Part shown: piece by piece, positions 3,197 through 18,344 of the stretch | How positions within the stretch are numbered: the stretch's first letter is position 1 | How the letters are laid out: every line of letters begins with the position of its first letter | Source: Candidatus Woesearchaeota archaeon | GTDB taxonomy: Archaea; Nanobdellota; Nanobdellia; Woesearchaeales; GW2011-AR9 | Length of the DNA stretch: 64,000 bases | NCBI GenBank assembly: GCA_018696595.1 | Contig: JABHQW010000008.1 | Location: forward strand, 268,522-332,521 | Reading direction: 5' to 3' | The notes under the pieces: generated by a model | Seen by the model: the letters and a program-made list of their open reading frames with translations, nothing else | Database searches by the model: none | What the model was told of the DNA's origin: nothing | Translations under genes and position numbers: made by a program

Positions 3197-4318
3197 TCAA
3201 TTTAAAAACTTATCTACTAACTTCTCTGCTTTTTTACGTTTCTGTTGATGTTCTTTTAGGAACTTAGTAAGCTTGTCAATCACAATTTGTTTTAGTTCTC
3301 CACTCAGTAATTTTCCAGACTTATAATCATCATAAATCTTTTTTAACTTTTTATCATTTGGTTCTAAGCCATACTTTAACATCTGAAATGGAATATCAAC
3401 CTCTGGGTTGCCTCCTTTCTTACGATGTTCTTCTAAAGTTGGTTGTCCACCAGAAAAGGCATACTTTTTAATTTTTCTTGCTGCTTCTTCAGGAGTATCA
3501 GTTAAAGCGATGTAAGATAATGGATCTGAGGAAGACATTTTACCACTTTTTAATCCTGGTAAGAATTTGTGATAAGTTGAACTTAATTGTTTAAACCTAA
3601 ATGCTTTTATTCTTTGAGAAACGTCTCTAGCTAACCTTAAATGCGGGTCTTGATCGGATCCAACGGGAACAATAATTGGAATTGGTTTACCTTCAAATTC
3701 TTTTAGTTGTGGGTGCAACATATCTGCTGCTTGTAATAATGAAGAGCTCATCTTCCCCGGACTGATTTCTCCATAAATCGCTTTGAACTCATTAAAGGTT
3801 GCATGTCTTGCTAACATATTAGCTAGGCTGTAATAAGCATTAGCTTGTTTTCCATTCTTTGATCTTGCTGATTGAAAATAGAAATCACAATTTTTTAATT
3901 TTAATCCCAGGGCAACATAATTTGTTAGATATTCTTTTATTGCAGTTTCTCGCAATTCTTTCATGTTGGGATTTCTAGAATTATATGCTTCAATATCAGC
4001 AACAGCAATGTAAACTTTTGCACCTAAAGATTGATAGAAAATAATTTGATCAGCAACTAATTTATGGCCAAAATGGAATTTGCCGGACGGCATAAGACCA
4101 GTCATCATTACAAAAGTTTTCTTTTTTTGCACTGCTTCTACTATCTGTTTAAAGTCTCGATGAGCAAAAATGATCTCTCTTCTAAATAAAACATTTTTCT
4201 GAAATGTTTCTGGAAGATGTTGTAACGGTTTTAAGCCGAACTGCTTAATTAATTTATCATAATCAATTTTTCCTTTAACTTCCCAGGGTGTTACTTTTTG
4301 TGTTATTTTTTCTGCCAT
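3197..4318 (-). CDS. trpS: Tryptophan--tRNA ligase (archaeal/eukaryotic-type class I aaRS)
   Basis: N-terminal VTPWEVKGKIDYDKLIKQFG. HIGH-type motif FHFGH. KMSSS motif present twice. Confidence 0.8.
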   Translation of the reverse strand: MAEKITQKVTPWEVKGKIDYDKLIKQFGLKPLQHLPETFQKNVLFRREIIFAHRDFKQIVEAVQKKKTFVMMTGLMPSGKFHFGHKLVADQIIFYQSLGAKVYIAVADIEAYNSRNPNMKELRETAIKEYLTNYVALGLKLKNCDFYFQSARSKNGKQANAYYSLANMLARHATFNEFKAIYGEISPGKMSSSLLQAADMLHPQLKEFEGKPIPIIVPVGSDQDPHLRLARDVSQRIKAFRFKQLSSTYHKFLPGLKSGKMSSSDPLSYIALTDTPEEAARKIKKYAFSGGQPTLEEHRKKGGNPEVDIPFQMLKYGLEPNDKKLKKIYDDYKSGKLLSGELKQIVIDKLTKFLKEHQQKRKKAEKLVDKFLN

Positions 4319-4391
4319 TTTGTTTGTTCTTTAGTTTGTTCTTTATTCATTATTGTTTTATTGTTTATAAGTTTTTAGTCATTCTTTTTCT

Positions 4392-4973
4392 TTATCTGCC
4401 AAAACTTGCTAAATAAGCCTCAAATTTAATAATTTTCTTTGTTGTAGATAATTTGCCCCAAATCAAAGCAAAAATAGTTGAAGAAACTATACTGGTCGAA
4501 AATGTTAATATCAATAAGTTGATTAGTTCTGATGAGAAAACTAATAATACTGTTTGTGATAATAACATTGCAGAAACTAAAAACATGCTTGTAAAACTTA
4601 TTGTTGTCCCAATAATAATATCTAAATGTAATGAAGACAATTCTATCTTAAATATCAAATGAATTACTTCAAAGATTATTATTGCAATCACATAGGTAAT
4701 CACTTTATTCCAATTAAATAATCCCAATTCCGCTAAATTGAAAGTAAACATAGCAACAAAGAACATGAATATTGTCGCAATACCGAAACGTTTCAACATA
4801 TCAACACAAATGTTCATCCCAGCAACTAAAAAAAATAAAGAAATAATAAGCAAAGGAGTGGGTGGCAAATAATAATCTGCTAAATAAAAAAATAATGAAG
4901 TAATAGCAGCTACAAATAGTGTAAAAAACAGTTGCTTTATTTTTATCCCTTGGATAAGTTCTATAGCAAACAT
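4392..4973 (-). CDS. Polytopic membrane protein, 193 aa, hypothetical
   Basis: Five or more hydrophobic helices. No recognisable motifs. Confidence 0.45.
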   Translation of the reverse strand: MFAIELIQGIKIKQLFFTLFVAAITSLFFYLADYYLPPTPLLIISLFFLVAGMNICVDMLKRFGIATIFMFFVAMFTFNLAELGLFNWNKVITYVIAIIIFEVIHLIFKIELSSLHLDIIIGTTISFTSMFLVSAMLLSQTVLLVFSSELINLLILTFSTSIVSSTIFALIWGKLSTTKKIIKFEAYLASFGR

Positions 4974-5033
4974 TCTATTTTCCTCTTACTTAATGTTTCT
5001 TTTAAAATCATTTCATTTCACTTTTATTCCATC

Positions 5034-5495
5034 TTATTTTTTAGATTTTTTTTGTTTCTTTCTAGCTTTATTCTTTTTATTTTTACTCCGTTTAGTATTA
5101 TTTTTGATTTTACTTTCCGTTTTAATTTTACTTTTATTGTCTCTCTTTTTACTTAGAATCTTTTTCTCATTGGGGGTAGTATTTTTTTTCTTGAACGGTT
5201 TTGTAATTAATCCCAAATAAGAAAAACTTTTTCTTTCTAATCTCGCTTTTATAATTGGTTGAGAATGTTTAATCTCTGCAATACGTTCTTCATATTTAAC
5301 AACCCGGTCATGATATGTATCAGTATTTATTTTATGTTGAACAAAACATTCTTTTTGTAAAGATTTGATAAGTTCAAGAGTCTTTTTTAGGTCTAATTTT
5401 AATCCTTCAAGTTTTTTCTTAAGATAAATTTTCCGAGACCATGAAAAGATTATTGGTAAGACTCCAGAACAATTATTTTCTAAAAAAGATGCCAC
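5034..5495 (-). CDS. Hypothetical protein with a lysine-rich C-terminal tail
   Basis: ORF. The N-terminal 80 aa are not low complexity. The K-rich tail mirrors F/L-rich ORFs on the opposite strand. Confidence 0.3.
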   Translation of the reverse strand: MASFLENNCSGVLPIIFSWSRKIYLKKKLEGLKLDLKKTLELIKSLQKECFVQHKINTDTYHDRVVKYEERIAEIKHSQPIIKARLERKSFSYLGLITKPFKKKNTTPNEKKILSKKRDNKSKIKTESKIKNNTKRSKNKKNKARKKQKKSKK

Positions 5496-5583
5496 CCTTA
5501 TTAAGAAAATTGATAATCTTTGTTTTAATGGGAAAACTGTCTCTGAGACTTATCTAACCACCATCGGCGGAAAAGAATGTTAT

Positions 5584-7260
5584 TTGCACACTTCTCAAAG
5601 TTCAATTTATGAAAACGGAAAGGTTAACGGGATTCTCGGTATTGTTCGTGACGTTACGGAAAGAAAGAAAGCAGAAGAAAAATTAAAAGAATCTGAAGAA
5701 AAGTATAGGAAATTGTTTGAATCTGCTCAAGATGGCATTTTAATCATTAATACTGAAACTGGAAGAATAACAGATGCAAACCCTTTCATTGAGAAACTTC
5801 TTGGATATAATAAAAATGAATTTGTTGGAAAACAAATATTTGAAATAAGTCCATTTAAAGATATTGTTCCTAATAAAAATAAGTTTAAAGAGTTACAAAG
5901 AAAGAAGTACGTTAGATATAGTCATTTACCTTTGGAAACAAAAAAAGGAAAAAAGATTTCTGTTGAATTTATCTCTAATGTCTACCCCATTGATCACTCC
6001 CTGGTTATTCAAGCAAATATTAGGGACATAACAGAACAAAAGAAAGCAGAAGAAAAGTTGAAACAATATCAAAATACTTTAGAAAATACTATCAAAAAGC
6101 GAACTCAAGAATTATCAAACAAATTAATTGAATTAAAAGTTAGCCAAAAGAAATATCAAACTTTGTTTATTTCTTCTCAAGATGCGTTGATGACTCTTGC
6201 TCCTCCAACTTGGAAATTTACTGCTGGAAATCCTGCTACTGTAAAGATGTTTAATTGTAAAGATGAAAAACAGTTTATTTCTCTTGGACCTTGGCAAGTT
6301 TCACCAAAGAAACAGCCAGACGGCCAGTTATCTTCTGTAAAAGCAAAGAAGATGATTGAAAAGGCAATGAAAGAAGGTTCAAACTTCTTTGAATGGACTC
6401 ATAAACGTTACAAAGGAGAAGATTTTCCAGTAACTGTACTTTTGAATCGAATTCTTATTAATGGAGACACTTTCTTGCAAGCTACAGTGAGAGATATCAC
6501 CGAACAAAAATTAAATGAATCTCAAATTCAAGAACAGATTGAAGAACTTAAAGAATTAGATCAATTAAAAACTCAATTCCTTTCGTTTGTTTCTCACGAA
6601 TTAAGAACTCCTTTAACTCCGATTCGTTCACAATTACAAAGGTTGTTAGGGAAAAAATGTAAACCTCAAGAGCAACAAGGATCTTTGCAAATGATTTTAA
6701 GAAATACCGTTCGTTTAGACAAATTGATTAATGATGTTTTAGAAATATCTCGATTAGAATCAAAACGAATGCAAATATTCAAAAGATCTGTTAATCTTAA
6801 AAATTTAATTAAAAACACTATCACTACTATGCAACCTTTAGCTGAAGATAAAAATGTAAAGATTTCTACTTTGTTCAAAAGAGTTCCTCCAACAATTTCC
6901 CTTGATGAAGATAGGATTAAACAGGTTTTAATCAATTTGATTGATAATGCTATTAAACATAGTAAAACAAAAGAAATAGCCATTTCTGCTAAAAGAACTA
7001 ATCATCATGTAACTATTTGTGTAGAAGATCAAGGTAAAGGCATTTCAGAAAAAGAAAGAAAACATCTTTTTGAATTGTTTTATGTAGGAAAAGAATCAAA
7101 GTATCTAACTAAAGGCGCTGGTTTAGGATTACCAATTTCTAAAGGGATTGTTAATTTACACGGCGGTAAAATTTGGATTAAAACTAAAATTAAGAAAGGA
7201 ACAACTTTTTGTTTTACATTACCTATTAAAAATAGTGGACAAACAAACAAACAAAAATAA
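5584..7260 (+). CDS. PAS/PAC sensor histidine kinase (3 PAS, HisKA, HATPase_c). Probably 5'-truncated: a TTG start inside a PAS domain, with an in-frame PAS remnant from 5461.
   Basis: Repeated DITEQKKAEEKL PAS junctions. H-box FVSHELRTPLTPI. N-box LIDNAIKHS. G-box GAGLGLPISKGIV. Confidence 0.8.
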   Translation: MHTSQSSIYENGKVNGILGIVRDVTERKKAEEKLKESEEKYRKLFESAQDGILIINTETGRITDANPFIEKLLGYNKNEFVGKQIFEISPFKDIVPNKNKFKELQRKKYVRYSHLPLETKKGKKISVEFISNVYPIDHSLVIQANIRDITEQKKAEEKLKQYQNTLENTIKKRTQELSNKLIELKVSQKKYQTLFISSQDALMTLAPPTWKFTAGNPATVKMFNCKDEKQFISLGPWQVSPKKQPDGQLSSVKAKKMIEKAMKEGSNFFEWTHKRYKGEDFPVTVLLNRILINGDTFLQATVRDITEQKLNESQIQEQIEELKELDQLKTQFLSFVSHELRTPLTPIRSQLQRLLGKKCKPQEQQGSLQMILRNTVRLDKLINDVLEISRLESKRMQIFKRSVNLKNLIKNTITTMQPLAEDKNVKISTLFKRVPPTISLDEDRIKQVLINLIDNAIKHSKTKEIAISAKRTNHHVTICVEDQGKGISEKERKHLFELFYVGKESKYLTKGAGLGLPISKGIVNLHGGKIWIKTKIKKGTTFCFTLPIKNSGQTNKQK

Positions 7261-7299
7261 TATAAATGGCGAAGTATTTACAAGCTAAAAGAGGTTAAA

Positions 7300-7674
7300 A
7301 TGAAAAAAGAATATTTAATCATGTCTGTAGATGATGAGAATGATATCAGAGATTCTATTAAATCCGTTCTTGAAGATGAAGGTTTTAAAGTTGAAACTGC
7401 TAAAGATGGCGCTAGTATGCTTAAAAAGCTAGAAAAAATTAAACCAGACTTAATTCTTTTAGACATTTTAATGCCTGGTTTAACAACTCGAGAAATCATT
7501 ACTGAAGTAAAAAAAAGAAAAATAAAAACTCCTGTTATCTTTTTAACAGTAGTTAGATTAGCAGAAGCTACTAAAAAGCATGTTATTAAGGGTAATATGG
7601 TTGATTACATTGAGAAACCATTTGATAATAAAGATTTGATTAAAAGAGTTAAAAGAGCTCTGAAAACAAAATGA
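7300..7674 (+). CDS. Single-domain response regulator (CheY-like receiver)
   Basis: MSVDDENDIRD with acidic pocket. Phospho-acceptor context LILLDILMPG. Conserved K in IEKPFD. Confidence 0.85.
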   Translation: MKKEYLIMSVDDENDIRDSIKSVLEDEGFKVETAKDGASMLKKLEKIKPDLILLDILMPGLTTREIITEVKKRKIKTPVIFLTVVRLAEATKKHVIKGNMVDYIEKPFDNKDLIKRVKRALKTK

Positions 7675-8201
7675 AGACTACTTTAAAGAAAGAATTAGCT
7701 AAGAATAGCATCATTTTATTGGTAGTGCCAAACAAAGATTATAATAAAATTATTCTGCGAGAAGTTAAGAAACTTAAAGGCAAGAATATTTGTTATGTAA
7801 CCACAAATAAAGGTCATAGTGCTTTAGTAAACGATTTTGAAAAAAATAAGATTGATACCAAGAAATTCTTTTTTATTGATTGTGTAACTTCCACAATTCT
7901 TAAACCAAAAATAACTCCTCCGAATTGTGCTTTAGTATCTTCTCCTCGAGCTTTAACAGAATTAAGTTTGGCTATCAATAAGTTTGTAGATATTCATTTC
8001 CCATTAATCTTTATTGATTCTTTGTCTACTCTTTTAGTTTATCATAGTCCAAAAGTGTTGACTAATTTTGTTCATAGTTTAAGTACTAAAGTTAGAGAAA
8101 CTGGTCATGTGGTTCTAGTGATGACTATTGCCGATAAAGATAAGAAAACAGAATTATATAAAAAGCTACAAGTTTTAGCTGATAAAGTTATCAAAGTATA
8201 A
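7671..8201 (+). CDS. KaiC/RecA-fold protein lacking Walker A (DUF835-like). Start overlaps the receiver gene by 4 nt.
   Basis: Strand/helix pattern IILLVVP...ICYVTT...FFFIDCVTS...LIFIDSLSTLL...HVVLVMT resembles the KaiC/RadA core. No GxxxxGK[ST]. ATGA overlap with the receiver gene. Confidence 0.45.
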   Translation: MKTTLKKELAKNSIILLVVPNKDYNKIILREVKKLKGKNICYVTTNKGHSALVNDFEKNKIDTKKFFFIDCVTSTILKPKITPPNCALVSSPRALTELSLAINKFVDIHFPLIFIDSLSTLLVYHSPKVLTNFVHSLSTKVRETGHVVLVMTIADKDKKTELYKKLQVLADKVIKV

Positions 8202-8328
8202 TTATTTATTTCTTATTTTTGAAGATAATCAGAATTACCTTATTCTCAATAAATTTAAGTTTTTAACCAAAAACTTTATATATCTAAGATGCACACCATA
8301 TGCACAGGGGGTACACCCGGAGGTCAAA

Positions 8329-8583
8329 ATGGTTTATGCAAGAATAACTTTGAATGATTATGCAAATAAAGTACTTAATGTAGTTAAAGCTAAATTTAGC
8401 CTTAATGATAAGTCTGAAGCAATTAATAAATTTGTTGAAATGTATGGTGAAGAAGTAGTGGAGAAAGAAGCTAATGATGAATATGTCAAGAAAGTAATTA
8501 AAATGACTGATGAGCATATCAAAAAATATGGTTACCGAAAAATGAATCTAAAAGAATTAGATAAAATTAGTGGTTTAAATTAA
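8329..8583 (+). CDS. Putative antitoxin of a type II toxin-antitoxin pair
   Basis: 84-aa ORF immediately upstream of a RelE/ParE-like toxin (14-nt gap). Preceded by GGAGGT. Confidence 0.45.
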   Translation: MVYARITLNDYANKVLNVVKAKFSLNDKSEAINKFVEMYGEEVVEKEANDEYVKKVIKMTDEHIKKYGYRKMNLKELDKISGLN

Positions 8584-8596
8584 AGGGGTTTTTTAT

Positions 8597-8869
8597 ATGT
8601 TTGATTTTGATTTGCATGATAAATTAAGTACGATTCTTAGTAAGTTATCTAAAAAGGACAAAAAGAAAGTTGAGATTATCAATAAGAAAATTAAAGAAAT
8701 TATTGCCAATGACCATAAAACAATTGACAGGTATAAAAATCTAAGAACTCCGTTACAACATTTAAAGCGTGTTCATATTGACAAACATTTTGTTTTAACT
8801 TTTAATGTCGATAAAGAAAAAAACTTTATTTTATTCGTGGATTTTGCTCATCATGACACTGTTTATTAA
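8597..8869 (+). CDS. RelE/ParE-family toxin
   Basis: 90 aa. C-terminal HFVLTFNVDKEKNFILFVDFAHHDTVY is typical of RelE/YoeB-fold toxins. Confidence 0.55.
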   Translation: MFDFDLHDKLSTILSKLSKKDKKKVEIINKKIKEIIANDHKTIDRYKNLRTPLQHLKRVHIDKHFVLTFNVDKEKNFILFVDFAHHDTVY

Positions 8870-8886
8870 AGAATTAATTATAATAT

Positions 8887-10095
8887 CTAAGGTCCTTGAA
8901 TCTCGCCGAATACTTCTTGTTCAGGATAAACTGTTACACCTTTCTCACCAATACTCATCGCTACAATCTTGTTCTGATGAGAAGTACCACGTAATTTAAG
9001 GATCTCAATCGCTCTTTCCCTGATGTTGCCACGTTTGATGTTATAGATAACAATAACCCCATCGGCAAGGAACTCTTCAACACCAGTAGTAGAGAAAATC
9101 TTAGGAACTTGTTCAGTTTCCGTAATTAAAAGAGCAGTAGCTTTAATATTTTCAAAGAATCTGAACAACTGTTCAATATAAATTCTGTATGATTCATCTT
9201 TAGCAGTAAAAGCAGAAGCAATCGCAGTTAAAGAGTCAACAACAATAAAGTCCGGTTTGAAACCTTTTGGTAAAATCAACGGATCAACTTCAATCATTAA
9301 CTCACCTTTAGCTTGCATTAGAAGAGCATCTACACTACGAGTAATTTCAAAAGGATTAAATCGTTTAACATAAAATTGTTTCTTCTTAATATACTTTCTA
9401 GGATTCCAACCAAACTGTTCCATGTGTCCAATAAGTTTTTCTTCAGATTCTTCAAAACTCATCATAATACATTTCTTTCCTTCAGCAAGATGATGAAATA
9501 AAGTTTGTAAACAGAAAATAGTTTTTCCTGAACCTGCACCACCAGCAACTAAGATTGAACCGTTTTTTGGAATGCCATTATCAAGTAAGTCATCAAATCC
9601 AGGAACCCCTGTATAAATAAACCCTTCTTTAGCTGCAGTAGCATGGCTTCTTTCAAATTGAGATTTAATTTCTGCTTTTAATGAGCCAAGATCAAATAGT
9701 TTATTTCCTGTCGGTTTAGCTGCTACTGTTTCTTCTGTTGGAATTGTTTCTTTACCTTTCGAATCAACATCTTTTACGGTTTCTTGATCTCCTTTTGGAG
9801 CAATAATCTTATCTTTAATTCCTTTAAGTTGATTTTTGATTTTGTCTTTAATCACTACTTTTGTTTTAACTTGAGAAACTTTTACAGTAGGGATTTTCTT
9901 TCCTTTCTTCAATTTAGGTGTTGCAGTCAATTCTTTGCCTAAATGTTTAACAATTTTCTTACGTTTCTTTCTAATTTCTTGGGTTATAACTTTCTTTCTA
10001 GCAGGACTTACTTGATGGATATACTGCTTTTTCTCTTTATCTACTTTGTGCAGCTTCTTATTTCGAGCAGATTCGGCTTTACTTAATAATCCCAT
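8887..10095 (-). CDS. KaiC-like RecA-superfamily ATPase with a 160-aa lysine-rich N-terminal extension
   Basis: GVPGFDDLLDNGIPKNGSILVAGGAGSGKT (Walker A). FIVVDSLTAI (Walker B region). Single KaiC/RadB-like domain. Confidence 0.8.
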   Translation of the reverse strand: MGLLSKAESARNKKLHKVDKEKKQYIHQVSPARKKVITQEIRKKRKKIVKHLGKELTATPKLKKGKKIPTVKVSQVKTKVVIKDKIKNQLKGIKDKIIAPKGDQETVKDVDSKGKETIPTEETVAAKPTGNKLFDLGSLKAEIKSQFERSHATAAKEGFIYTGVPGFDDLLDNGIPKNGSILVAGGAGSGKTIFCLQTLFHHLAEGKKCIMMSFEESEEKLIGHMEQFGWNPRKYIKKKQFYVKRFNPFEITRSVDALLMQAKGELMIEVDPLILPKGFKPDFIVVDSLTAIASAFTAKDESYRIYIEQLFRFFENIKATALLITETEQVPKIFSTTGVEEFLADGVIVIYNIKRGNIRERAIEILKLRGTSHQNKIVAMSIGEKGVTVYPEQEVFGEIQGP

Positions 10096-10100
10096 TTTAG

Positions 10101-11993
10101 CTATTTAACCCCATACTTATTCATAATCTTTTTATAAGTTTTGAAATCTTTTGATTTTGAAAATGCGTTAATTTCTTTTTTAGGCAATTTTCCAAGTAAA
10201 CCATCAATTTTTCTTAATGCCGGTTTAAGATCTTTATCCACATCAACATTAGATTTAACTTTAACCCTAATACGTTTAATCTCTTTAACAATTCTCGTTT
10301 TGATTTTAACAACTTGTACAATTTTTGTTTTTATTTTAATAATTGGTAATTTCTCATCAATAATTAAATGCAACTTGTGTAGTTCATCTCTTAACTTATT
10401 AGCATCATTAACTCTTTTAATTTTTTCTTTAACAACTTTATTTAAGTTTTTAAGTTGTTTATCCCTATCAGATAATTTTTCTGAAATGGCCTTATAATTA
10501 GCTTTAGTCTTCTCTTGTTTATCCTCTAGCTTTATTTCTTCCTCTCTTAATTTTCGAAGAATGTTCTCGTTATTAGCTGTTTTATTTGATATGTTAGATT
10601 TTCTTTTACGAAGAGTTTTAGCCTTTTCTAATAATTTCAATCTATTAGCAGATAACTCTTTCTTTTTAGTTTCCATTTCATTATCGATTTCAGATTTCCT
10701 TTTCTCTAATTGTTTGGAAGCGCTTCCTTTTTTACGATTAAGAACAACAATTTCTTTATCTAAATCAGCAATCTTTAATCCTGCCTGTTTGTTAGCCCGT
10801 GCTTGTTTAAGTTTAAGCCTTTTCTTTTCATTTTCAAGATTATTTTTTAATTGTACTTTTTTTCTCGTCAAATCGACACTAATTTTTTGTTGTTTAATTT
10901 TTTCTAAAGCAATTTCTTTTTCTACATTTTTGATTTTCTTCCAAGTGTTAGATTTAACTTCATCTTCTAATCGGGCAATATAATTATCTAAACGATCATA
11001 AACTGGTTTCTTTAAGAGTGATTGTTTAATTTTTCTTTCTAATTGGATTTTTTGGACTATTTTTCTTAATAACTGTTCTTCTTCAACTAGACTTTGATGT
11101 TTTCTTTTTTCAGAAGAAATTTGATTGTTAGTAGCAGTTAATGATTTCTTATTTTTATTTAACTTAGTCATAGCAAAGTTTTGTTTTTGGTTAAGAGCTT
11201 TAATTCTTTTACCCACTTCTTCTTTTTTCAAAGCTTGTTTTCGATAAGCTTCTTGTGTTCTCGTTAAATCTTTGGAAATATCTTCAATTTGTTTATTTAA
11301 ATCTAAATGTTTCTTAACAATTTTCTGTTGTTTTTCATTTTGAACTTTACTTTCCTTTCTTACTGATAATAATAATTGTCTTTTTACAGCTGCTAATGAA
11401 GTTTCAATATTATCAAGTAAAGTTTGGTGTTCTTTTTTCTCTTTTAAAACTTTAATTTGTAACTGCTCAATATTTCTCTTCTTAGCTAAAAATTCTTTTT
11501 GTGTAGAAAAAGAGTTATCTTGGAACGAACGTAATTGTCTTTTTTTAAGCAACATTTCTTTCTCTATGTTTTTAAGACTAGTTTTAGCTTTAGATTTTTC
11601 AGCTTTAAAACTATCAATCACTGCTGGCATATCTCCAGAAACCGCTTTAACCGCAGTTAACATCTTTTCAATTTTGTTTAATTTTATTTTTCCTGTTTTT
11701 AATTCATTCTCTTTTTCTTGAATGTCAAGCAAAATCATTTTCGTTTTTGCTTCATTAATACTTTTCCTTTGTAATAATTCTTTTTCCAAATCATTCATTT
11801 CTCTTTTAATTTGGTTTAAAGCTTGGCTATCTCTATTCAGTAAACTTAAAGAGGCTGTTCTTCTTCTTTCCCATGACTTTAATTTATTACTGAAGCTTTT
11901 CTTTTCTTTTTCTAAAACTTTAATTTTCCTTCCAGATTCAGAAAGAATTTTGTTAATCTCCTTCTCCAAATTGAGCAATAATTCTGGCATCAC
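10101..11993 (-). CDS. Long coiled-coil protein (630 aa, K/E/L/Q-rich) with no globular enzymatic domain recognised
   Basis: Continuous heptad-like composition. Ends 5 nt upstream of the KaiC-like gene start, so the two are operonic. Confidence 0.55.
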   Translation of the reverse strand: MMPELLLNLEKEINKILSESGRKIKVLEKEKKSFSNKLKSWERRRTASLSLLNRDSQALNQIKREMNDLEKELLQRKSINEAKTKMILLDIQEKENELKTGKIKLNKIEKMLTAVKAVSGDMPAVIDSFKAEKSKAKTSLKNIEKEMLLKKRQLRSFQDNSFSTQKEFLAKKRNIEQLQIKVLKEKKEHQTLLDNIETSLAAVKRQLLLSVRKESKVQNEKQQKIVKKHLDLNKQIEDISKDLTRTQEAYRKQALKKEEVGKRIKALNQKQNFAMTKLNKNKKSLTATNNQISSEKRKHQSLVEEEQLLRKIVQKIQLERKIKQSLLKKPVYDRLDNYIARLEDEVKSNTWKKIKNVEKEIALEKIKQQKISVDLTRKKVQLKNNLENEKKRLKLKQARANKQAGLKIADLDKEIVVLNRKKGSASKQLEKRKSEIDNEMETKKKELSANRLKLLEKAKTLRKRKSNISNKTANNENILRKLREEEIKLEDKQEKTKANYKAISEKLSDRDKQLKNLNKVVKEKIKRVNDANKLRDELHKLHLIIDEKLPIIKIKTKIVQVVKIKTRIVKEIKRIRVKVKSNVDVDKDLKPALRKIDGLLGKLPKKEINAFSKSKDFKTYKKIMNKYGVK

Positions 11994-15722: not shown

Positions 15723-18344
15723 CTATTCAATCTCAAATCGAAGTATAGCAGCAATGCCGCCTAAATCTCTAAGTTGTGCCCCTTCTCTAGTTTCTGTAGA
15801 AATAATCCTAACTTCTGCACCACCTGCTTGTGCCTTCTCTTCCAAATCAAAAATCTTATTTTCAGGAATACTCTCTGAAATTAGTAAAATGTCAACTGCG
15901 GCCATTTCTAAAGCTTTCAATGTTTCTTTCTCCCCATAAGTTGCTTTTTTGGGCGTATCTCTAAGAGTGCCTAAGAATTGTTGCATAATTTTTTTCTCGT
16001 GAGCAATTTCTTCTTCTGATAAAAGGTCTTCAGATTTTTCTAATAATTCTTGCAATCCAAAATCTCCGGTATACGATAAATCTTTAGTACCAATAATTTT
16101 TTTCTTTACATCTCCAGTAATATAATCTTTATTCATAAAATCGTTAATCGTAACACCGGGGCCACCAATAATAATGCCTTTCAAATCTTTTCCAAGAGGT
16201 AAGAATTGATCTTTCATATATTCTGCAATTTTTTTAAAATGATCTTTAGCAGCACCTTCTCTTAGACGAGCGAATCTTTGAGCAGAATTATGAACTATTA
16301 ATCCATTTGCTATGAAGTTTTGATTGCCAACAGAAATGTCAATCATTTCAGTTTCTTCATTTCTTTTTTCAATATTAGCAATCTTAACCGGCAAAATGGG
16401 GCTATTATAAACTTCTTCTAATTGTGTATATAATTTCTTATCTTTAACACAAGACAAGATAGAACTCTTAAATGTTTGTTTACTCATCATTCTCTCATTT
16501 CTAAAGAAGTTTGTTACTTTTGGAAATTGGTTTGTGTTGTAACCAGCGTTTTCAATTATCTTTCTGATTTTCGAACCAGAAGCAATAATTTGTCTGACAT
16601 TACTCTTATTTGATCTTAAATCAATACTCTTTTCTAATTTTTGTGATTTTTTATTACAAGTAAATCCAATTTGTTCTTTAAATAATTCTAAAGATTTCTT
16701 TTCTGTAATGTCAATTGTAAAGCGAGGATTATCACTTAGTGGATTTCTTCTATTGTCATATTCATGTAAAGAAGAAATGATTCCAAATCTTAACAAAGCC
16801 ATTTGTATTTGTTGTGCCAATATTTTGTTATTTATTCCAAATGCAGCCTGTTTTCTTTGAGAAACATAACCTTCTGCATCAAAAAATCCTTTCACAAAAC
16901 TTGCAAGAATTTTATTTGGAGAATTTAATATTTTTTCGGGAATTAAAGAATCTCTTGCTTTTTTTATTTCTGGAAATTCTGTTTGAATTAATCTAACTAA
17001 TGGTCTACTTGTAAATCTTAACTGGTGGTAATTCTTACTTTCTCTAAATTTATAACTACAATTCAGATCAAAGTGTTGATCAAACAATTCTTTATAATGT
17101 AAAGCAAGATCTTTACTTTGTTCAAAGAAAGTAATTCTATCTTTTTCTATACAACCATCACCCATTAGATAACCTAAAAATTGAGCGAGATTTGCTTCAA
17201 GAAGAACCGGCAATTTGATGTTTTTGTATAGTTCAGGAGTAGTATAGTTATTTAGGAAATCATAAAAATCAATTTCTAAGGCCGCACAAAGCTTTTGCAA
17301 AGGAATTCTTCCAATATTTCTTTTTCCTTTTTCGTAAGTTGATATTGCTGTTTGGGTAAGCCCAGTAAGTTTTGCAACATCTCTCTGAAATAAACTTTTT
17401 TCTTCTCGTTTTCTCTTGATTTGGTTTTGTCCTTCTTTATTTATTTTGAAAGAATTATAATATTGAACTGCTTTGATGGTTTGAAGTTTACCTTCTACTT
17501 CTATTTTTTCAGGCATAATTAGAAAATCTCCTTCTTGAAGTTCTTCAGCGGCTTTTTCTTTGATTCCATTCTCAGTTTTCACAAAGAAAATATGGTCTTT
17601 AGAAGATTCTACTTGTAGTCTTGGATATTTTGTTGTGATCTTGTAAACTTCATGTTTTTTGGCATTCCATTTATCTGTAATTGGTGAATCTTTAATTGAG
17701 TGACTTTCCATAACCATACTCTTGAGCACAATTGGGTTATGGGAATTTTCAATTTTTAAGATGTCTCCCTGAGTGGATTGAATTAATGTTCCTTTCATAC
17801 AACATTGTCCACCTGCTTTAGTTTTTCCAGGAACTTCCGAATGTGTTTTTTGCATTGGGACAATAGATTTTCCTTTCAACAGAGCAATGGTTGCATCCCT
17901 TCTATCCATAACAACAAGACCATAAACTTCTTTGTTAACCATCATTTCTTCTAATAAATCAGTTACAAAGTTTTTATCACAACGATAAATACGTGTGTTT
18001 AATTGGATTGGTGGTTCAATACTCCAAACTCGAACATCTTGTTTACCTTCTCCTGCGGCAACGTTTCCAGAAAAAACCGCAAAACCATTTTCTGGTGTGT
18101 TACCAATAGTTCTTAAATGTTGAATCATTTTTTCCAAAGCATTCTGGACATTCTTTCTAGTAGCAGCAGATTTAATGTTTGAAGCGGTTCCTTGCTCTTC
18201 TGCTAGATGTTGAATAATTTTTGTCATATCATAACCAGAAGGGATGTAAACTGTAACAAACTCTGTATGTGGAGCCTTATGGCTACGTAACTCACTTACT
18301 ATTTTTTTCAGTTTCAGTTTCTCTTGTGCGGTTATCGCTGCCAT
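15723..18344 (-). CDS. prf1: Peptide chain release factor aRF1 (eRF1 homolog) interrupted by an intein
   Basis: Exteins together are about 367 aa, with NIKS-like region and KTKAGGQ|SAQRFARLRE. The C-terminus GGIAAILRFEIE is eRF1-like. Confidence 0.9.
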   Translation of the reverse strand: MAAITAQEKLKLKKIVSELRSHKAPHTEFVTVYIPSGYDMTKIIQHLAEEQGTASNIKSAATRKNVQNALEKMIQHLRTIGNTPENGFAVFSGNVAAGEGKQDVRVWSIEPPIQLNTRIYRCDKNFVTDLLEEMMVNKEVYGLVVMDRRDATIALLKGKSIVPMQKTHSEVPGKTKAGGQCCMKGTLIQSTQGDILKIENSHNPIVLKSMVMESHSIKDSPITDKWNAKKHEVYKITTKYPRLQVESSKDHIFFVKTENGIKEKAAEELQEGDFLIMPEKIEVEGKLQTIKAVQYYNSFKINKEGQNQIKRKREEKSLFQRDVAKLTGLTQTAISTYEKGKRNIGRIPLQKLCAALEIDFYDFLNNYTTPELYKNIKLPVLLEANLAQFLGYLMGDGCIEKDRITFFEQSKDLALHYKELFDQHFDLNCSYKFRESKNYHQLRFTSRPLVRLIQTEFPEIKKARDSLIPEKILNSPNKILASFVKGFFDAEGYVSQRKQAAFGINNKILAQQIQMALLRFGIISSLHEYDNRRNPLSDNPRFTIDITEKKSLELFKEQIGFTCNKKSQKLEKSIDLRSNKSNVRQIIASGSKIRKIIENAGYNTNQFPKVTNFFRNERMMSKQTFKSSILSCVKDKKLYTQLEEVYNSPILPVKIANIEKRNEETEMIDISVGNQNFIANGLIVHNSAQRFARLREGAAKDHFKKIAEYMKDQFLPLGKDLKGIIIGGPGVTINDFMNKDYITGDVKKKIIGTKDLSYTGDFGLQELLEKSEDLLSEEEIAHEKKIMQQFLGTLRDTPKKATYGEKETLKALEMAAVDILLISESIPENKIFDLEEKAQAGGAEVRIISTETREGAQLRDLGGIAAILRFEIE
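16287..17804 (-). mobile_element. Intein (506 aa) inserted between GGQ and S of aRF1. Contains a LAGLIDADG homing endonuclease and an XRE-type HTH.
   Basis: Starts with Cys directly after GGQ. Ends ...NQNFIANGLIVHN followed by the Ser +1 residue. LAGLIDADG motifs LGYLMGDG and GFFDAEG. HTH LFQRDVAKLTGLTQTAISTYEKG. Confidence 0.85.

Follow-up and report, generated by a model that had tools for sequence, protein, structure and literature searches.

An operon-encoded receiver and a KaiC-fold protein without a P-loop in a DPANN archaeon: a candidate route from two-component signalling to KaiC-like ATPases

Stand-alone receivers (REC-only regulators) are the commonest archaeal response regulators, and a partner is known for few of them (PMC5847659). 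Most lack a conserved gene neighbourhood, and two-component systems as a whole are scarce in the genomes of DPANN archaea (PMC5847659). On what, then, does such a receiver act? The question is raised by a locus at positions 5584-8201 of a 64-kb stretch of archaeal DNA (contig JABHQW010000008.1; the whole stretch is hereafter called the window, and coordinates refer to it unless another locus is named), where genes for a sensor kinase, a stand-alone receiver and a small protein of KaiC fold follow one another. The third protein, which we call pseudo-KaiC, has lost the ATPase site of its fold, and the link between receiver and pseudo-KaiC genes looks solid on gene-order evidence, because the two genes stay neighbours in several archaeal phyla, whichever of them comes first. 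We give a little better than an even chance to the reading that the pseudo-ATPase is the protein partner of the receiver and couples the two-component system to a KaiC-like ATPase.

An earlier note on this DNA had described a three-gene module, and the three open reading frames (ORFs) were found where it had placed them, all on the plus strand: the sensor kinase at 5584-7260 (558 aa, TTG start), the receiver at 7300-7674 (124 aa) and pseudo-KaiC at 7671-8201 (176 aa). The kinase and receiver genes are separated by 39 nt, and a Shine-Dalgarno-like GAGG (7289-7292) lies 8-11 nt before the receiver ATG. The TGA stop of the receiver gene shares its letters with the ATG of the third gene; this ATGA overlap (7671-7674), also described before, is plain from the sequence itself. 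Taken with the kinase-receiver gap of 39 nt, the overlap leads us to infer that the three genes are co-transcribed and translationally coupled. Directly after the stop codon of the third gene stands a T-rich tract, ttatttatttcttattttt (8202-8220, plus strand), which could plausibly be an archaeal oligo-T terminator ending the operon. The window is AT-rich (G+C ~31%), its archaeal housekeeping genes include those for a class I Trp/Tyr-tRNA synthetase, aRF1, SecY and PheRS beta, and the nearest named relatives of the third protein come from metagenome-assembled genomes (MAGs) of Candidatus Woesearchaeota. We read the three genes as a two-component operon on the chromosome of a Woesearchaeota-like member of the DPANN archaea.

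The first two products are the PAS histidine kinase and the CheY-like receiver that had been proposed, with the Pfam families HATPase_c, HisKA, PAS_9 and Response_reg all scoring above cutoff. The kinase matched HATPase_c with 101 bits (E 5.4e-29, cutoff 26.4), HisKA with 62 bits (E 5.3e-17, cutoff 26.9) and PAS_9, in two stretches, with 65.5 bits (E 5.8e-18, cutoff 27). Its architecture is PAS-PAS-HisKA-HATPase_c, that of a cytoplasmic sensor. The H-box SHELRTP (6592-6612) supplies the histidine of HisKA, and HATPase_c contains the N box DNAIKH (6943-6960), the G1 box DQGKGI (7027-7044) and the G2 box GAGLGL (7114-7131), all read on the plus strand. The receiver matched Response_reg over its full length (positions 1-111 of 111; 92.6 bits, E 2.2e-26, cutoff 30.2) and has the acidic pair D11/D12, the phospho-acceptor D55 (7462-7464), T83, Y103 and K106; the acidic pair, the aspartate, the Thr/Ser and the lysine that define a two-component receiver are thus all in place. 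Because the H, N, G1 and G2 boxes and the key residues of the receiver are intact, both proteins look catalytically competent. The receiver, the sole REC gene of the 64-kb window, is a stand-alone protein with no output domain of its own. For this reason, and given its Y103/T83 switch pair, the phosphorylated form should act by binding a partner, for which the product of the overlapping third gene is the obvious candidate.

The third protein was recognized by the Pfam family DUF7504 (PF24336), with 30.3 bits (E 7.2e-7, cutoff 27) over residues 43-175, corresponding to profile positions 35-178 of 179. The scores for KaiC (PF06745; 21.8 bits, cutoff 26.6) and for DUF835 (PF05763; 19.0 bits over residues 90-152 only, cutoff 33.1) stayed under their cutoffs. 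The designation 'DUF835-like' given previously was therefore right about the superfamily and not about the family, since the DUF835 match is sub-threshold and DUF7504 fits better; as judged by profile scores, DUF7504 is the best family for this protein. Precomputed PF24336 hits are present on most of its relatives. An initial search with the third protein returned 62 relatives, and a profile search 876 at E <= 1e-5 among the candidates scored. When a profile was run exhaustively over 1.84 billion cluster representatives, 3867 matched at E <= 1e-3 and 830 at E <= 1e-30, most of them ~175 aa long. Counted as clusters of 50% identity, the family has no fewer than 830 members at E <= 1e-30. Its members are publicly labelled 'hypothetical', 'FlaH' or 'KaiC/GvpD/RAD55 family RecA-like ATPase'. 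In an alignment of 59 sequences D70, T96, D116, S117, F133 and D171 are invariant, and Y42, N46, F68, S91, P92, L95, L118 and Y124 nearly so.

A profile search of PDB sequences identified KaiC (E 4.2e-5) and Sulfolobus FlaH (E 5e-5), both aligned across the DSLS Walker B region. The AlphaFold2 model built from the alignment was very confident (predicted local distance difference test, pLDDT, 95.8; predicted template modelling score, pTM, 0.91) and consists of alternating beta-alpha elements, with the RecA-like alpha/beta core and central parallel sheet of the RecA/KaiC superfamily. On these profile matches and this model, the RecA/KaiC fold of the third protein is established. The earlier note had claimed this fold and had named, in advance, a lack of RecA/KaiC-fold similarity as one result that would overturn its reading; the search was run and the similarity was found instead. 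Some family members carry additional regions. A CheC-like N-terminal region precedes the pseudo-KaiC domain in P0120 and P0148 (20.7 and 24.7 bits; cutoff 22), a CBS pair is fused to it in P0097 (119 bits), and tandem pseudo-KaiC repeats occur in P0075 and P0094. A class of ~285-300 aa bears a C-terminal extension of ~115 aa that matches no family.

Is the ATPase site really lost? In the sequence, the strands IFIDSLS and HVVLVMT pointed out earlier are present and the Walker A motif is absent, as had been noted. The third protein has neither GxxxxGK[ST] nor any GK[ST]. At the P-loop position it reads VVPNKDYN (7722-7745, plus strand), where the family consensus is P-[NS]-x-x-Y. None of the 59 relatives has GK[ST] at this position, and 58 of them have no GK[ST] anywhere; the GKS of the lone exception is at position 36, away from the P-loop position. 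The catalytic glutamate pair is replaced by N46-K47 (within 7794-7814), N46 being found in 58/59 and K47 in 46/59 relatives. Aligning the family with the KaiC-like ATPase encoded nearby (see below) by hhalign set YVTTNKG opposite MMSFEES in a sensible register, with a probability of only 1.8% owing to the single-sequence template; this register was used for motif-position mapping alone, and the residue mapping leans mainly on the fold match. The Walker B aspartate is retained in IFIDSLS (aa 113-119, 8007-8027), whose D116 and S117 are invariant in the 59 sequences and align to IDSLS of KaiC and FlaH. Of the features of the KaiC family the protein thus lacks both the Walker A motif and the catalytic glutamate pair. 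Since P-loop and catalytic glutamates are gone and only the Walker-B-like hhhhDS is kept, it is predicted to be unable to hydrolyse ATP in the canonical way. The idea of an inactive ATPase fold is borne out at the level of the family. Two further conserved stretches are FFFID (7866-7880) and SSPRALTE (7938-7961). The most conserved polar residues (N46, D70, S91, T96, D116 and S117) are situated at the C-terminal tips of the central strands or immediately beyond them, a spatial grouping deduced from topology and not from coordinates, which hints that the old active-site face may still serve contact with a ligand or a partner.

To what extent are receiver and pseudo-KaiC genes found together elsewhere? 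Related loci were scanned in one genome per GTDB species using a profile from a 16-sequence subset of the alignment. The 62 loci obtained belong to Woese-, Aenigmat-, Iain-, Alti-, Micr- and Nanoarchaeota and Hadesarchaea, with a few MAGs labelled Methanosarcinales or Thermoplasmata. The census comprises 69 non-redundant loci, mostly from DPANN archaea, and their ORFs were searched with iterative profiles from the receiver, kinase core, KaiC and pseudo-KaiC of the window. In 19/69 loci the immediate neighbour of pseudo-KaiC on the same strand is a stand-alone receiver gene. The spacing of the two ranges from -4 to 151 nt, and five loci have the value -4; the -4 overlap recurs in L001, L012, L015 and L069. 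These 19 loci are from Woesearchaeota, Nanoarchaeota, Aenigmatarchaeota and Hadesarchaea, and both gene orders are represented, pseudo-KaiC coming before the receiver in L006, L023, L043 and L062. Within flanks of ~5 kb, a receiver was found in 28 and a kinase in 21 of the 69 loci. A P-loop KaiC gene is adjacent in 15/69 and within 5 kb in 33/69, and a second pseudo-KaiC gene is adjacent in 10/69. Receivers make up ~4.5% of genes even in these enriched loci; across archaeal genomes as a whole their share of ORFs is below 2% (PMC5847659). The probability of 19 adjacencies in 69 loci by chance is P ~1e-5 to 1e-10, a rough figure as the loci are phylogenetically non-independent. In a neighbour-joining tree the window protein falls into a clade of 11 members, all 11 of which are receiver-adjacent. 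Other clades are marked by triads of a KaiC and two pseudo-KaiC genes (Altiarchaeota), by proteins of ~790 aa that contain the domain and are encoded beside a convergent KaiC gene of ~400 aa (Iainarchaeum), or by stand-alone pseudo-KaiC genes (Aenigmatarchaeota). An all-against-all comparison of the 19 receiver-linked loci, disregarding antisense shadow ORFs, revealed four recurrent families: pseudo-KaiC, receiver, kinase/PAS (16/19) and P-loop KaiC (9/19). No DNA-binding protein or other effector recurs in these 19 loci.

Single loci, from ever more distant relatives, show these neighbours in a range of arrangements. In L001-L003 (68% identity) kinase, receiver and pseudo-KaiC genes, with the same 4-nt overlap, are followed by the same pair of small genes as in the window and by a convergent KaiC gene (~410 aa). 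In L004 an unrelated gene separates the three from a convergent KaiC gene and a gene for a long protein. L005 has receiver then pseudo-KaiC with zero gap, and L007 has two receivers, pseudo-KaiC and, further away, a kinase. In L006 (Hadarchaeaceae) a KaiC gene is divergent from pseudo-KaiC, which is followed by the receiver and PAS kinases. In the Woesearchaeota locus L009 (1751-6737) one strand encodes a kinase, a receiver, pseudo-KaiC, a V4R protein, another pseudo-KaiC, a protein with HTH_11 and, last, a P-loop KaiC. No other locus shows the putative pathway so fully, and a DNA-binding candidate occurs in this one alone.

Other branches of the family are arranged differently. In Altiarchaeota and relatives (L024, L026, L027, L033, L039 and L068; ~4100-6200 in each) a P-loop KaiC gene (~240 aa) is followed on the same strand by two different pseudo-KaiC paralogues, and none of these six triads contains two-component genes. 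The triads suggest a heteromeric assembly of KaiC and inactivated KaiC (iKaiC) subunits, if gene order is a guide. In Iainarchaeum and GW2011_AR10 (L040, L058, L059, L060 and L063; ~4050-6530) the pseudo-KaiC domain sits centrally within a protein of ~575-800 aa that has no other recognisable domain, and each of these genes is followed by a convergent KaiC gene (~400 aa) like that of the window.

The window itself contains a KaiC-like ATPase gene downstream of the operon. A bona fide KaiC had been announced 700 nt downstream; it is real and lies 686 nt past the stop of the third gene, on the minus strand (8887-10095), convergent with the operon and behind a toxin-antitoxin pair. The 402-aa product is single-domain, with one PF06745 stretch (176 bits, E 7.6e-52) at residues 161-393 behind a Lys-rich N-terminal extension of ~150 aa. 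On the minus strand its Walker A GGAGSGKT (9520-9543), the catalytic glutamate pair in SFEES (9445-9459) and the Walker B VVDSLT (9226-9243) can be read. Between operon and KaiC gene is a two-gene toxin-antitoxin cassette on the plus strand (8329-8583, 84 aa; 8597-8869, 90 aa). For the 90-aa product, the best indication is a below-cutoff match to the YafQ-family toxin model TIGR00053 (E 1.3e-14), next to weak matches to YhaV and ParE; the 84-aa upstream product is presumably the antitoxin of this YafQ/RelE-like toxin. The small-gene pair is also present in L001 and L073. Only 5 nt from the KaiC gene, a minus-strand gene (10101-11993) encodes a 630-aa coiled-coil protein with weak SMC-like similarity and no family match, and L001 and L004 also have a long gene in the matching position beside KaiC, the products being at least 359 aa and 883 aa long, respectively, the latter with a weak TP_0179 match. 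An anti-phage defence system was considered for the region and rejected: in PADLOC the receiver and KaiC drew generic weak domain hits, while kinase, pseudo-ATPase, both toxin-antitoxin proteins and the coiled-coil protein drew none. Further on, the aRF1 (eRF1) gene (15723-18344, minus strand) is interrupted by an intein, with Intein_splicing, LAGLIDADG_3 and HTH_3 matches between eRF1 domains 1 and 2.

At its other end, the operon begins with an incomplete gene. The TTG at 5584 is merely the first canonical start of a kinase frame that is open from 5428. The 52 codons at 5428-5583 (plus strand), which follow a TAA stop (5425-5427) and contain no ATG, GTG or TTG, translate into a PAS remnant, IFRDHEKIIGKTPEQLF...GGKECY, resembling the C-terminal two thirds of a PAS fold; no PAS-like reading frame was found further upstream of 5428. 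Because the remnant has no start codon and is not preceded by PAS-like sequence, the kinase is best read as a 5'-truncated derivative of a longer multi-PAS kinase, and the 5' end of its gene appears to have been lost by rearrangement. A Lys-rich minus-strand ORF of 153 aa (5034-5495) overlaps the remnant. In L073, where the third protein is 99% identical, the contig begins inside the kinase gene.

How might these proteins work together? In the proposed pathway, the PAS kinase would autophosphorylate on its H-box histidine and the phosphoryl group would then pass to D55 of the receiver, a transfer expected because the motifs are intact and two-component chemistry is established. The phosphorylated receiver (receiver~P) would bind the pseudo-ATPase made from the overlapping gene. 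This in turn could associate with the nearby P-loop KaiC ATPase, either as a subunit without catalytic function or by capping the KaiC ring, and change its assembly, activity or autophosphorylation. The net effect would be a bacterial-type two-component input plugged into an archaeal KaiC signalling hub. The relay from kinase to receiver~P, pseudo-KaiC and KaiC is favoured because KaiC is the only recurrent neighbour outside the two-component system and because degenerate RecA folds elsewhere partner active paralogues; Elp4/5/6, Rad51 paralogues and the Shu complex work as non-catalytic partners of this kind. Pseudo-KaiC would be the part that receives sensory input, and the CheC-like, CBS and tandem fusions agree with such a role. 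More specifically, and more tentatively, DUF7504 proteins might be dedicated adaptors that are recruited by receiver~P, or in other lineages by fused CBS or CheC-like inputs, and insert into or cap the P-loop KaiC ring to switch its ATPase.

Several points weigh against this relay. Folded as a concatenated chain in single-sequence mode, receiver and third protein gave an uninformative model (pLDDT 40.5, pTM 0.28). Neither the 120 best relatives nor the 20 longer family members scanned contain a REC-DUF7504 fusion. P-loop KaiC is absent from the examined DNA of 10/19 receiver-linked loci, although three of these ten (L012, L050 and L069) are contigs shorter than 4 kb. The KaiC gene of the window, on the opposite strand and behind the toxin-antitoxin pair, is by its orientation not co-transcribed with the operon, and the 5'-truncated kinase without an ATG start leaves expression of the whole operon only putative. 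Gene order, moreover, cannot separate output from input.

This last point bears on the direction of the pathway, as the pseudo-ATPase may act on the two-component pair rather than relay its signal. It could modulate the kinase or, much as CheC, CheX or CheZ do, act on receiver~P as its phosphatase, sink or scaffold, and the nearby KaiC would then be unrelated or upstream. CheC-like domains act on CheY~P in other systems, and KaiC feeds the kinase SasA in cyanobacteria. The CheC-like fusions of P0120 and P0148, the variable gene order (with iKaiC before the receiver in the four loci named above) and the ten receiver-linked loci without KaiC are in line with this direction of action. The CheC matches, however, are short and weak, and the third protein has no recognisable phosphatase motif. 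Moreover, members without a two-component neighbour adjoin P-loop KaiC (15/69), which points to KaiC as the common partner of the fold. We regard action on the pair as unlikely, if worth keeping in mind. Somewhat less probable still is a receiver output that bypasses KaiC, in which the pseudo-ATPase would form a RecA-like ring or filament docking on a type IV pilus or archaellum-type motor, as ArlH does on ArlI. FlaH/ArlH is among the best sequence and structure matches, several relatives are publicly labelled 'archaellum biogenesis ATPase FlaH', and a gene for a T2SSE-type ATPase is located ~3 kb from the L009 module. Yet no archaellum or pilus gene is recurrent in the 19 receiver-linked loci, and ArlH/FlaH (PDB 4yds, 4wia) binds ATP through a Walker A motif in a P-loop that the third protein does not have. 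An identity as ArlH/FlaH itself was rejected: the NCBIfam models scored 17.0 and 26.3 bits against cutoffs of 215 and 194, and the gene context consists of toxin-antitoxin, KaiC and coiled-coil genes, with no archaellum gene.

The conserved face of the protein allows another view, namely that the relic active site still binds a nucleotide or phospho-ligand and that the third protein is a small-molecule sensor or an enzyme, not an inert adaptor. Its conserved polar residues are at the strand ends where RecA-fold proteins bind nucleotide, and purifying selection on the pocket suggests that a ligand or partner contact has been kept. Against this, no glycine-rich loop, Lys/Thr pair or catalytic glutamate occurs in any of the 59 relatives, and the clustering of the residues is deduced from topology alone; we consider a bound ligand improbable. 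Finally, adjacency might be functionless and the third gene an unrelated passenger. Although 50/69 related loci lack an adjacent receiver, the clade of the window protein is receiver-adjacent throughout (11/11), adjacency survives across phyla and changes of gene order, 4-nt overlaps recur and the enrichment is strong, so that a mere passenger is very improbable indeed.

With respect to known systems, the coupling of the receiver to pseudo-KaiC has close counterparts. Galperin, Makarova, Wolf & Koonin (2018) list REC-DUF835 (iKaiC), iKaiC-REC and MEDS (iKaiC)-REC among archaeal response regulators (PMC5847659), and the same survey connects these REC-iKaiC architectures with the KaiC hub that Makarova et al. 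(2017) had proposed. Like these fusions, the present module combines a CheY-type receiver with a KaiC-superfamily domain whose ATPase site is degenerate; in neither case is there a DNA-binding output, and protein-protein signalling is predicted. By the definition of iKaiC in that survey, the third protein has the disrupted ATPase motifs and not the fusion to REC in one polypeptide. In contrast to the fusions, receiver and KaiC-fold protein are here encoded by two separate genes overlapping by 4 nt, the KaiC-fold part is DUF7504 instead of DUF835, MEDS or PF06745, and the hosts are DPANN archaea and Hadesarchaea instead of Methanomicrobia, Thermoplasmata and Thaumarchaeota. The module is thus a split-gene equivalent of the catalogued REC-iKaiC fusions in a different iKaiC family and different lineages. 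Two-component output through KaiC-fold proteins had been called poorly characterised in the earlier note, which is true of experiments; the REC-iKaiC architectures themselves are already catalogued (PMC5847659). The idea of REC acting with an inactivated KaiC has accordingly been published at the comparative-genomic level, and the gain here is incremental. Among the papers searched, none mentions DUF7504 and only PMC5847659 came up for DUF835.

The KaiC-like ATPase of the window resembles the hub ATPases of Makarova, Galperin & Koonin 2017, as far as PMC5847659 recounts them, in being a single-domain KaiC encoded beside signalling proteins. A single screen for a weakened response of Haloferax volcanii to the disk-forming signal yielded mutations both in cirA, a KaiC-like gene, and in the receiver-domain regulator qarA (PMC13464002). 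Unlike CirA and the hub proteins, which have an intact P-loop, the third protein has none and would be at most an accessory to such an ATPase. With Elp4/5/6, the Rad51 paralogues XRCC2 and RAD51D, Psy3-Csm2 and the BcsE N-terminal domain it shares no more than the fold (8-18% identity); these are eukaryotic or bacterial proteins of tRNA modification, recombination and cellulose secretion with no two-component link. In cyanobacteria KaiC has two domains, is active both as an ATPase and as an autokinase, and works with KaiA and KaiB; its output runs through SasA-RpaA, and pseudo-receivers are found in KaiA and CikA. There too a KaiC-fold protein is linked with histidine-kinase and receiver-fold proteins, but the flow runs from KaiC to kinase to regulator, unlike that proposed here. 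A clock of the cyanobacterial KaiABC type was rejected, the neighbouring KaiC being single-domain. Neither KaiA nor KaiB was among the Pfam results for ORFs at 4392-11993, no dedicated search having covered the rest of the window.

The module supplies a conserved neighbourhood for a REC-only receiver and gives functional context to a Pfam domain of unknown function, DUF7504. The receiver and pseudo-KaiC pair, often with a kinase and a real KaiC nearby, is a concrete candidate pathway of four small soluble proteins and could reveal the route by which two-component input arrives at KaiC-type signalling proteins, which are widespread in archaea. If the proposed relay is true, genome-reduced DPANN archaea would possess a minimal four-part pathway of kinase, receiver, pseudo-KaiC and KaiC, a partner would be assigned to a class of REC-only regulators (~40% of archaeal response regulators), and the pathway would be the first defined physical junction of bacterial-type two-component signalling with the proposed archaeal KaiC hub.

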